Shown piece after piece: positions 78 through 142 of a DNA stretch of 604 bases. The notes under the pieces are model-generated. The model saw only the letters and a program-made list of their open reading frames with translations. It was not told the origin of the DNA and made no database searches. The translations under genes and the position numbers were made by a program. Positions within the stretch are counted from its first letter, which is position 1, and each line of letters starts with the position of its first letter. This stretch comes from Escherichia coli (GTDB lineage Bacteria; Pseudomonadota; Gammaproteobacteria; Enterobacterales; Enterobacteriaceae): the NCBI RefSeq assembly GCF_003334405.1, contig NZ_QOWM01000061.1; one strand, given 5' to 3'.

Positions 78-125
78 ATACGGGTGTTACCTGAAAGATT
101 TTTACTCGGGGCCAATCTTTAAGAT

Positions 126-142
126 TGGTGGGTCGTGCAGGA
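126..142 (-). other. Orphan 17-nt copy of the tRNA-Lys 3' terminus (T-stem 3' half, acceptor 3' half, ACCA)
   Basis: The plus-strand string tggtgggtcgtgcagga is identical to the first 17 nt of each tRNA-Lys at 2, 224 and 528. Similarity to the tRNA stops abruptly after this 17-mer, where the sequence continues tgactcgc instead of ttcgaacc. Confidence 0.85.

Follow-up and report, generated by a model that had tools for sequence, protein, structure and literature searches.

Background

Why should the 3′ end of tRNA-Lys recur, detached from any tRNA, in the spacers of a tRNA operon? The question is raised by a 604-nt stretch of Escherichia coli DNA (the window, always taken at its full length), in which an earlier note, made from the sequence alone, had pointed out five copies of a 17-mer that ends the tRNA-Lys genes and had read the two copies outside those genes as a duplication breakpoint or the remnant of a decayed tRNA-Lys copy, setting aside the scar of an integrase.

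Here, we confirm the observation and find the interpretation partly supported: the rejection of an integrase scar and the idea of a repeat-bounded unit both stand, and what had gone unrecognised is that the elements belong to a known family, the tRNA-linked repeats (TLRs; Rfam family RtT, RF00391), as judged from the RF00391 match and the published description of TLRs (PMC8144298). The explanation that best covers the whole, and in which we have high confidence, is that the two orphan copies close known TLR/RtT elements, each a repeat-bounded unit in the 3′ trailer of pre-tRNA-Lys that is dispensable and has no demonstrated function. The orphan finding leaves existing knowledge unchanged; what is added here is the polymorphism of the elements among E. 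coli genomes and the matching of their tails to the host tRNA.

Results and discussion

Organization of the tRNA-Lys spacers in the window

tRNA genes were placed with ARAGORN and Rfam. The 17-mer TGGTGGGTCGTGCAGGA, the reverse complement of the tRNA-Lys 3′ end TCCTGCACGACCCACCA, has five exact copies on the plus strand of the window, at 2, 126, 224, 430 and 528, precisely where the earlier note had put them, against a chance expectation of 0.00 matches (dinucleotide shuffles of the window). Three copies are gene ends, in the minus-strand genes lysW, lysY and lysZ of the E. coli K-12 lysT operon, and the other two lie at 126–142 (lysY–lysZ spacer) and 430–446 (lysW–valZ spacer), that is, in spacers without a tRNA call, and are therefore orphans. 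The ARAGORN and Rfam calls thus agree with the reported division into three true tRNA-Lys 3′ ends and two orphans, and the claim that the spacer holds no D-arm or anticodon-arm homologue likewise stands, there being no tRNA call in it. A plain tRNA pseudogene was ruled out as a candidate on the same grounds, neither spacer giving a tRNA call with ARAGORN or Rfam.

The length of the shared stretch had to be corrected. It had been given as 17 nt, ending exactly at the boundary of T-loop and T-stem; window bases 143 and 447 are also common to the copies, and the real stretch is 18 nt (ATCCTGCACGACCCACCA on the RNA strand), so that homology ends 2 nt inside the T-loop (A59 and T60 in standard numbering). 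In the direction of transcription, a complete tRNA-Lys is followed by 81 nt, then by the orphan that closes the element, and then by 48–51 nt of site-specific spacer. Both elements lie within the lysT operon and begin at the first base past the CCA of lysW or lysY, and in both the tail agrees with the 3′ end of the upstream tRNA at 18 of 18 nt. The features of the window are the following (coordinates, strand, description):

2–77, minus: tRNA-Lys(UUU) gene lysZ, whose own tRNA-linked repeat lies downstream, outside the window
78–125, minus: site-specific 48-nt spacer, the lysZ leader, found directly after the lysY CCA in element-less genomes
91–100 and 114–123: 10-nt inverted repeat in the lysZ leader spacer
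126–142 (17-mer) and 126–143 (18-mer), minus: first orphan; in the predicted RNA, 134–143 is paired (helix P1) and 126–133 (ACCCACCA) is free
126–223, minus: lysY-linked tRNA-linked repeat, short-form and RtT-like, 81 nt plus the 17-nt orphan (98 nt)
187–196, minus: 5′ strand of the P1 closing helix, CGUGAAGGAU, predicted to pair with 134–143, the first 10 nt of the orphan 18-mer, with one A·G mismatch
224–299, minus: tRNA-Lys(UUU) gene lysY, whose last 18 nt are the upstream direct-repeat copy for the 126–223 element
303–378, minus: tRNA-Val(UAC) gene valZ (ARAGORN, Rfam)
379–429, minus: site-specific 51-nt spacer, the valZ leader, found directly after the lysW CCA in element-less genomes
430–446 (17-mer) and 430–447 (18-mer), minus: second orphan; in the predicted RNA, 438–447 is paired and 430–437 is free
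430–527, minus: lysW-linked tRNA-linked repeat, a 98-nt unit
491–500, minus: 5′ strand of the P1 closing helix, CGUGUAGGAU, predicted to pair with 438–447 at 10 of 10 positions, one of them G·U
528–603, minus: tRNA-Lys(UUU) gene lysW, whose last 18 nt are the upstream direct-repeat copy for the 430–527 element

With the upstream tRNA-Lys included, 430–604 and 126–300 form a 175-nt direct repeat (repeat family D2) that is 97% identical. Each window element opens with a 5′ hairpin of its own, UUAACAUC-N7-GAUGUUAA (197–221 and 501–525), with unlike loops in the two elements (AAACUCA versus GAAGACA); the elements after lysT and lysZ are without this hairpin. No credible ORF was found in the window, where the only candidates are 37–54 aa long and overlap tRNA genes.

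The orphans are the 3′ ends of tRNA-linked repeats

Both orphans are the 3′ ends of TLRs. These repeats were first described in 1978 (Egan and Landy) and were catalogued by Rudd in 1999; their hallmark is that the 3′ end of the preceding stable-RNA gene is repeated over 18–19 bp, they number one to five per locus, and they are without known function (PMC8144298). The orphan feature is a rediscovery of this hallmark, already known and not new. The window elements resemble TLRs in their position within a tRNA operon after a stable-RNA gene, in their 18-nt tail and in occurring several to a locus (five here), with no essential difference. From this definition and the Rfam assignment, we infer that the two window elements are among the 22 TLRs of the published list.

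Membership in RF00391 was judged by whether the covariance-model score reached the curated gathering threshold of 45 bits. The window elements scored 54.4 bits (126–292) and 54.9 bits (430–596), with E-values of about 6e-10, and part of each score comes from the neighboring tRNA, as in the cmscan alignment the model's 5′ half falls on the tRNA-Lys body. The reported extent of 167 nt is accordingly misleading, the true homology being confined to the 3′ 65–70 nt of the elements, in which the counterpart of the RtT closing-helix strand (GgGaaGGAU) is GUGAAGGAU, at 188–196 and 492–500. Similar “RtT RNA” genes of 166–170 nt are present in a Klebsiella annotation.

Across the whole operon, the 17-mer occurs ten times, five times in tRNA-Lys genes and five times as an orphan, one per tRNA-Lys. 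All five orphan-bearing stretches score as RtT (46.7–60 bits), and only the element downstream of lysQ is labelled by the NCBI pipeline PGAP, as “RtT sRNA”. Downstream of all five tRNA-Lys genes stands the conserved RtT core (AACGTTGC..GCAACGGCCCG[A/T]AGGGCGAG..hairpin..CGAGTC), after which the last 18 nt of the tRNA are repeated exactly. The tyrT–tyrV locus holds four RtT copies (133–137 bits), each with the final 19 nt of tRNA-Tyr as its tail. Common to the Lys and Tyr elements is a core composed of AACGTTGC-loop-GCAACG, GCCCG(A/T)AGGGC, a small hairpin that varies and CGAGT(A/C); they differ in the tail, which is always that of the host tRNA. Elements are also found in K-12 after lysV (47 bits) and proK (101 bits), and the serV-argV-argY-argZ-argQ operon of K-12 (locus L130) contains three short forms with tRNA-Arg tails, after argV, argZ and argQ, along with a 62-nt argY–argZ spacer that represents a natural empty site. 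All three tRNA-Arg short forms fall below the Rfam RtT threshold, the model under-detecting short forms. For annotation, this means that RF00391 mis-registers short forms over the adjoining tRNA-Lys and misses those that follow tRNA-Arg.

The RtT reference is a 171-nt rtT RNA that is freed from the primary transcript and ends at the repeated CCA. With RtT (rttR, tyrT–tyrV operon), the window elements share the core, the hairpins and a closing helix made of an upstream strand and the tRNA-derived tail. Unlike RtT, they are without about 40 nt (GAGAAGCTTCGACCAAGGTTCGACTCGAGCG..) of the 130-nt model, from the closing-helix strand to hairpin 2, and carry their own 5′ hairpin instead; their tail is a tRNA-Lys 18-mer and not a tRNA-Tyr 19-mer; they overlap no tpr-like ORF; and they score 54–55 bits, in contrast to 133–137 bits for the tyrT copies.

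Predicted RNA structure

The predicted RNA folds of the two elements have energies of −32.7 kcal/mol (126–223; z = −3.5) and −38.7 kcal/mol (430–527; z = −4.9). Both consist of a 5′ hairpin followed by a domain that is closed by the pairing of CGUG(A/U)AGGAU with the first ten bases of the orphan 18-mer, and in both ACCCACCA stays unpaired. In an alignment of 15 related short-form elements from the Lys and Arg operons of seven genera, a small sample, the specified four-helix structure had 95.4% of cells paired, compared with 29–52% when the partners were slid. Four of the nine pairs of the closing helix are changed on both sides in this alignment (Lys, GUGAAGGAU; Arg, GGGAGGAU; Hafnia Arg, GGGAAGAU), covariation extends to hairpin 4, and an A·G mismatch is present in the closing helix of most Lys copies. 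The covariation of the predicted closing helix with the first half of the orphan is supportive, not conclusive.

Presence and absence of the elements among E. coli genomes

Spacers were compared in seven genomes, namely, six divergent E. coli loci and K-12. Almost all differences among the seven loci come down to the presence or absence of the element at individual sites. At empty sites, the tRNA CCA is joined straight to the sequence that lies 3′ of the orphan CCA in K-12, and the K-12 spacers of 135, 149, 146 and 132 nt are replaced by spacers of 35, 51, 48 and 33 nt; the missing unit is exactly 81–83 nt plus one copy of the repeat, and in the window it is 126–223 that corresponds exactly to the unit absent from the empty genomes. 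K-12 has elements at five of five sites, C41(DE3) at three, O157:H7 at one and the ST131 strain (L129) at none. The lysW–valZ site is empty in four of the loci (L125, L127, L128 and L129), and the lysY–lysZ site is empty in L129. The 98-nt unit is a clean presence/absence polymorphism bounded by an 18-nt direct repeat, and the state of the element varies independently at each of the five sites in the operon. Among the seven genomes, two pairs of sites less than 1 kb apart, W/Q and Z/Q, show every one of the four possible combinations of filled and empty, which suggests recurrent events rather than one ancient event.

The earlier note had proposed to look for changes in copy number in units bounded by the 17-mer. 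Length does vary in repeat-bounded units; the varying unit is, however, the spacer element and not the number of tRNA copies. Loss of the orphan with the rest of the module retained, which that note had named as contrary evidence, was not seen; wherever the orphan is absent, precisely the 81 nt are missing with it.

The state of two sites was then counted in 5426 complete E. coli genomes with junction queries of 36–38 nt, built so that only the intended junction gives a qualifying match. The lysW–valZ site is empty in 3013 genomes and filled in 2301 (junction-specific searches; together 98%), and the lysY–lysZ site is empty in at least 1226 and filled with an intact junction in 1755, the filled counts being lower bounds at both sites because internal tail mutations escape the junction queries. 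The element is absent in 55% (lysW–valZ) and at least 23% (lysY–lysZ) of the genomes, percentages that apply to this collection only, which is not a random sample of the species. A count of 3527 genomes for the empty lysY–lysZ site was dropped because in many strains the filled element also begins with ATTTTAA and matched it at 34 of 36 nt, and a 38-mer was used instead. At the lysY–lysZ site, about 45% of the 5426 genomes fit neither the empty nor the intact-filled junction query, and point changes in the tail are the likely explanation: in four of six sampled genomes, the site is filled and the lysY-linked orphan has a point change in its free, acceptor-like part, giving the variants ACGACACACCA (two genomes), ACGACCTACCA and ACGAGCCACCA. 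Only 1027 of the 5426 genomes matched the whole operon over 80% or more of it in one piece. The elements are, then, not fixed parts of the operon and behave as clean polymorphisms in one of the best-studied bacteria.

Two further variants of the operon were observed. The O157:H7 operon (L128) is down to four tRNA-Lys genes, having lost a Lys gene together with its spacer on top of the element losses. In E. coli CAU16175 (L126, 2633–2705), the last tRNA-Lys gene, annotated as 73 nt, ends with ...GACCCACAA and not with ...GACCCACCA, and the orphan downstream of this shortened gene keeps an intact CCACCA.

Tails match the upstream stable RNA across genera

To sample relatives in other genera, one genome per species was scanned with the core pattern ACGRCCCGAAGGGYGAR, which returned at least 120 loci, over half of them chance matches in GC-rich genomes, so that the taxonomic range obtained is a sample and not a census. 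Among the matches listed, 62 core hits have a tRNA within 500 nt upstream; in 54 of these 62, the core is followed by 18 nt that reproduce the 3′ end of that tRNA without a mismatch, and in 57 by 18 nt that do so with no more than one. Eight tail 18-mers are represented among the matches listed, those of tRNA-Lys (three), tRNA-Tyr (two), tRNA-Arg(ACG) (two) and tRNA-Pro(CGG).

Lineage-specific variants of tRNA-Lys are mirrored in the tails, with ACGCCCC in Citrobacter and Budvicia and a T-stem change in Hafnia, and the same holds for tRNA-Arg in Hafnia and for tRNA-Tyr (CCCCCGCC) in an Enterobacter and a Pluralibacter. Citrobacter youngae (L113) has two tRNA-Lys variants in a single operon, each with its own matching tail, and pairing within the element cannot explain this match because the varying base sits in the unpaired part of the tail. 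Tandem arrays are formed by three copies after tyrV and, in Enterobacter cloacae, by two after lysV. That every tail matches the tRNA in front of it and that the partner strand compensates means that some process keeps them in step; it could be recombination, selection or both.

The stable RNA copied is not always a tRNA. RtT-type cores with a copy of the 5S rRNA 3′ end occur in Superficieibacter (L042, inspected in detail), Phytobacter (L063) and Siccibacter (L103, L105 and L106), and in Superficieibacter electus (L042, 60–230) the 22-nt 5S repeat AACTGCCAGGCATCAAATTAAG lies ahead of thrV. Another locus, L096, also carries an RtT-type core after a 5S rRNA gene. In the Rfam scan, none of the 5S-linked cores of L042, L063, L103, L105 and L096 reached the RF00391 threshold.

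These matches bear directly on the reading of the orphan as a passive relic, in which the last piece of a tRNA-Lys copy, or an old segmental-duplication breakpoint, decays neutrally. Such a relic would agree with the point mutations that the tail gains within E. coli and with the 97% identity of the two paralogous units in the window. It also has some appeal from the long forms (after lysQ, lysV and proK and in tyrT), in which the core is preceded by the 5′ half of a T-arm, specific to the host (GCAGGTTTGA, GGAGGTTCGA, GAAGGTTCGA), and which look like the 3′ part of a tRNA with an insertion in its T-loop; this half is kept only in such long-form relatives outside the window. Nevertheless, we consider a passive relic improbable. 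Exact 18-nt tails in 54 of 62 hits among the matches listed, spread over many genera and tracking lineage-specific tRNA variants, a partner strand that changes in step with the tail, and a core that follows four tRNA species and 5S rRNA, beyond the reach of one duplication breakpoint, all speak against it. A host-matched tail and a covarying helix are not the behavior of a passively decaying relic, and the host-matched tails largely refute this reading. The duplication breakpoint or decayed tRNA remnant that the earlier note preferred is therefore only a loose fit, given that the tail equals the upstream tRNA across genera and that half of it lies in a covarying helix.

Repeat length and element ends

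The direct repeat is not of constant length. After lysQ, lysV and proK, it extends through the Rho-independent terminator; the lysQ repeat is 53 nt long, producing dual terminators with the element between two identical copies, a layout that corresponds to the flanking of rrB by the T1 and T2 terminators in rRNA operons. The operon-end elements are the following:

L001, 5638–5800: element after lysQ
L131, 830–1020: element after lysV
L132: element after proK

At the lysY site of many strains, the repeat reaches 7 nt past the CCA (25 nt), and at the 5S rRNA gene of Superficieibacter it measures 22 nt. The left boundary of the repeat is constant in tRNAs (in the T-loop) and the right boundary is variable. 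The left ends of the elements themselves are unlike, the first 30 nt or so differing between lysT/lysZ-type and lysW/lysY-type elements. The variable right boundary and the unconserved left ends fit duplication or recombination, not a transposon with fixed termini.

T-loop-targeting integrases duplicate the segment from the T-loop to the CCA, and the att-site repeats of genomic islands and P4-like prophages are accordingly direct repeats from T-loop to CCA with one copy orphaned downstream. The window elements resemble these att sites in just this respect, and a site-specific integration scar (attR-type), or a target site duplicated by a small mobile element upon insertion into tRNA T-loops, would account for the span of the repeat, for the existence of both filled and empty sites and for the presence of one core beside different stable-RNA genes. 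We regard this origin as extremely unlikely all the same. No integrase or mobility gene was found within 6 kb on either side of the operon, which lies between cpoB and nadA among ordinary housekeeping genes (cpoB, pal and tolB on one side; nadA, pnuC and zitB on the other), and the insert between the repeat copies is only 81 nt long. Elements of the lysT/lysZ kind and of the lysW/lysY kind have unlike left ends, the repeat length goes from 18 nt in the window to 22 nt at 5S rRNA, 25 nt at the lysY site of other strains and 53 nt at operon ends, and, in contrast to att sites, the pattern recurs after every tRNA-Lys of the operon. A search for the 81-nt insert in a collection of 50,697 phage records returned only two records, both Salmonella chromosomal contigs and not phages, and no real phage record in the collection carries it. 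In setting the integrase scar aside, the earlier note was correct, as the integrase-free 6-kb flanks, the 81-nt insert and the missing phage carrier agree.

Two specific candidates were rejected: an integrase scar or island boundary, there being no integrase and 81 nt between the repeats, and a miniature transposable element, there being no conserved termini and repeats of 18, 22, 25 and 53 nt.

Proposed mechanism and function

For the tRNA-linked repeats as identified here, loss of the element probably proceeds by recombination or slipped replication, with the tRNA 3′ end and the orphan as the two partners. Unequal exchange in the opposite sense would produce the tandem arrays found elsewhere and would keep the tail equal to the adjoining tRNA, and repeated rounds of exchange would homogenize tail and tRNA. 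At the RNA level, the element would form part of the 3′ trailer of pre-tRNA-Lys. The first 9–10 nt of the orphan, comprising the 3′ strand of the T-stem and the start of the acceptor strand, are predicted, with support from covariation, to pair upstream and close a three-hairpin domain, and the predicted single-stranded ACCCACCA would resemble the acceptor end of a tRNA. As has been proposed for the 5S-linked TLR RrB, the stem and the ACCA end may give the spacer RNA a tRNA-like 3′ processing site just past the CCA.

A related possibility, which we put forward tentatively, is that TLRs are hitch-hiking repeats spread among stable-RNA gene copies by homologous exchange, with selection at the RNA level acting mainly to sequester a decoy tRNA 3′ half. 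In such exchange, homology on the left would be provided by the tRNA body and on the right by the 18-nt tail; recurrent unequal exchange would then yield an element at every tRNA-Lys, tails matched to tRNA variants even at unpaired positions, and flips between filled and empty sites. Selection on the closing helix would mainly stop the decoy 3′ half from competing in the folding of pre-tRNA.

Somewhat more doubtful is a functional small RNA or processing signal whose tail is selected for recognition by RNase E, RNase P or a 3′ exonuclease, a role of the kind proposed for the 5S-linked TLRs RrA, RrB and RrF. The covariation of the closing helix and hairpin 4, the stable predicted folds and tails that agree with the host tRNA from genus to genus, down to an unpaired base (ACGACCC versus ACGCCCC), are what such a role would lead one to expect, and RtT-annotated RNAs have been seen in the transcriptomes of Klebsiella and Actinobacillus. 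RrB, moreover, maps 3 nt past its repeat and binds Hfq and CsrA in vitro (PMC8144298). The genomic distribution points the other way, with the element absent from 55% (lysW–valZ) and at least 23% (lysY–lysZ) of the complete E. coli genomes in the collection, an ST131 strain that has none, and point mutations in the tail that are tolerated. No stable RNA from the spacers was reported in published Northern analysis with probes against them: the processing study of the lysT operon, which used probes to all four long spacers, described “surprisingly few” intermediates in the wild type and modelled the long 3′ trailers of the operon as removed by RNase II and PNPase (PMC4176162). An early claim of a part in the stringent response, the sole functional claim for RtT, was retracted (PMC8144298).

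With rrA, rrB and rrF, the 5S-linked TLR RNAs, the window elements share their plan, the 3′ end of a stable RNA being repeated after a structured element; however, these RNAs lie between dual terminators at the ends of rRNA operons, whereas the window elements are inside a polycistron, and they carry GGA motifs for CsrA and bind Hfq and CsrA, whereas the 19 TLRs of tRNA operons score below 0.01 for CsrA binding (PMC8144298). Returning to the preferred reading of dispensable tRNA-linked repeats, absence from more than half of the genomes at one site argues against an important function; the element is dispensable and has no demonstrated function. K-12, with five elements, and the ST131 strain, with none, provide natural “knock-outs” for asking whether TLRs do anything.

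Related sequences in other genomes and on plasmids

In Salinicola (L010, L079, L080, L084 and L085), a 17-nt core with the flanks ...GAACGTCCGAAGG and CGGAGCGAGTAA.. occurs several times per genome, followed by ATGCTCATTT and with no recognizable tRNA tail; the Rfam scan of L010 gave no RtT or tRNA match. Outside the Enterobacterales, Marinobacterium lutimaris (L028, 8770–9071) has two strong RtT matches of 100.7 and 89.3 bits beside tRNA-Arg(CCG); their tail follows that tRNA for the first 10 nt only (ATCCCTCCAG) and then diverges. Finally, a few plasmid records match the tRNA-Val/tRNA-Lys part of the operon in 13 places, for example, in the 50-kb record NZ_CP098226.1.
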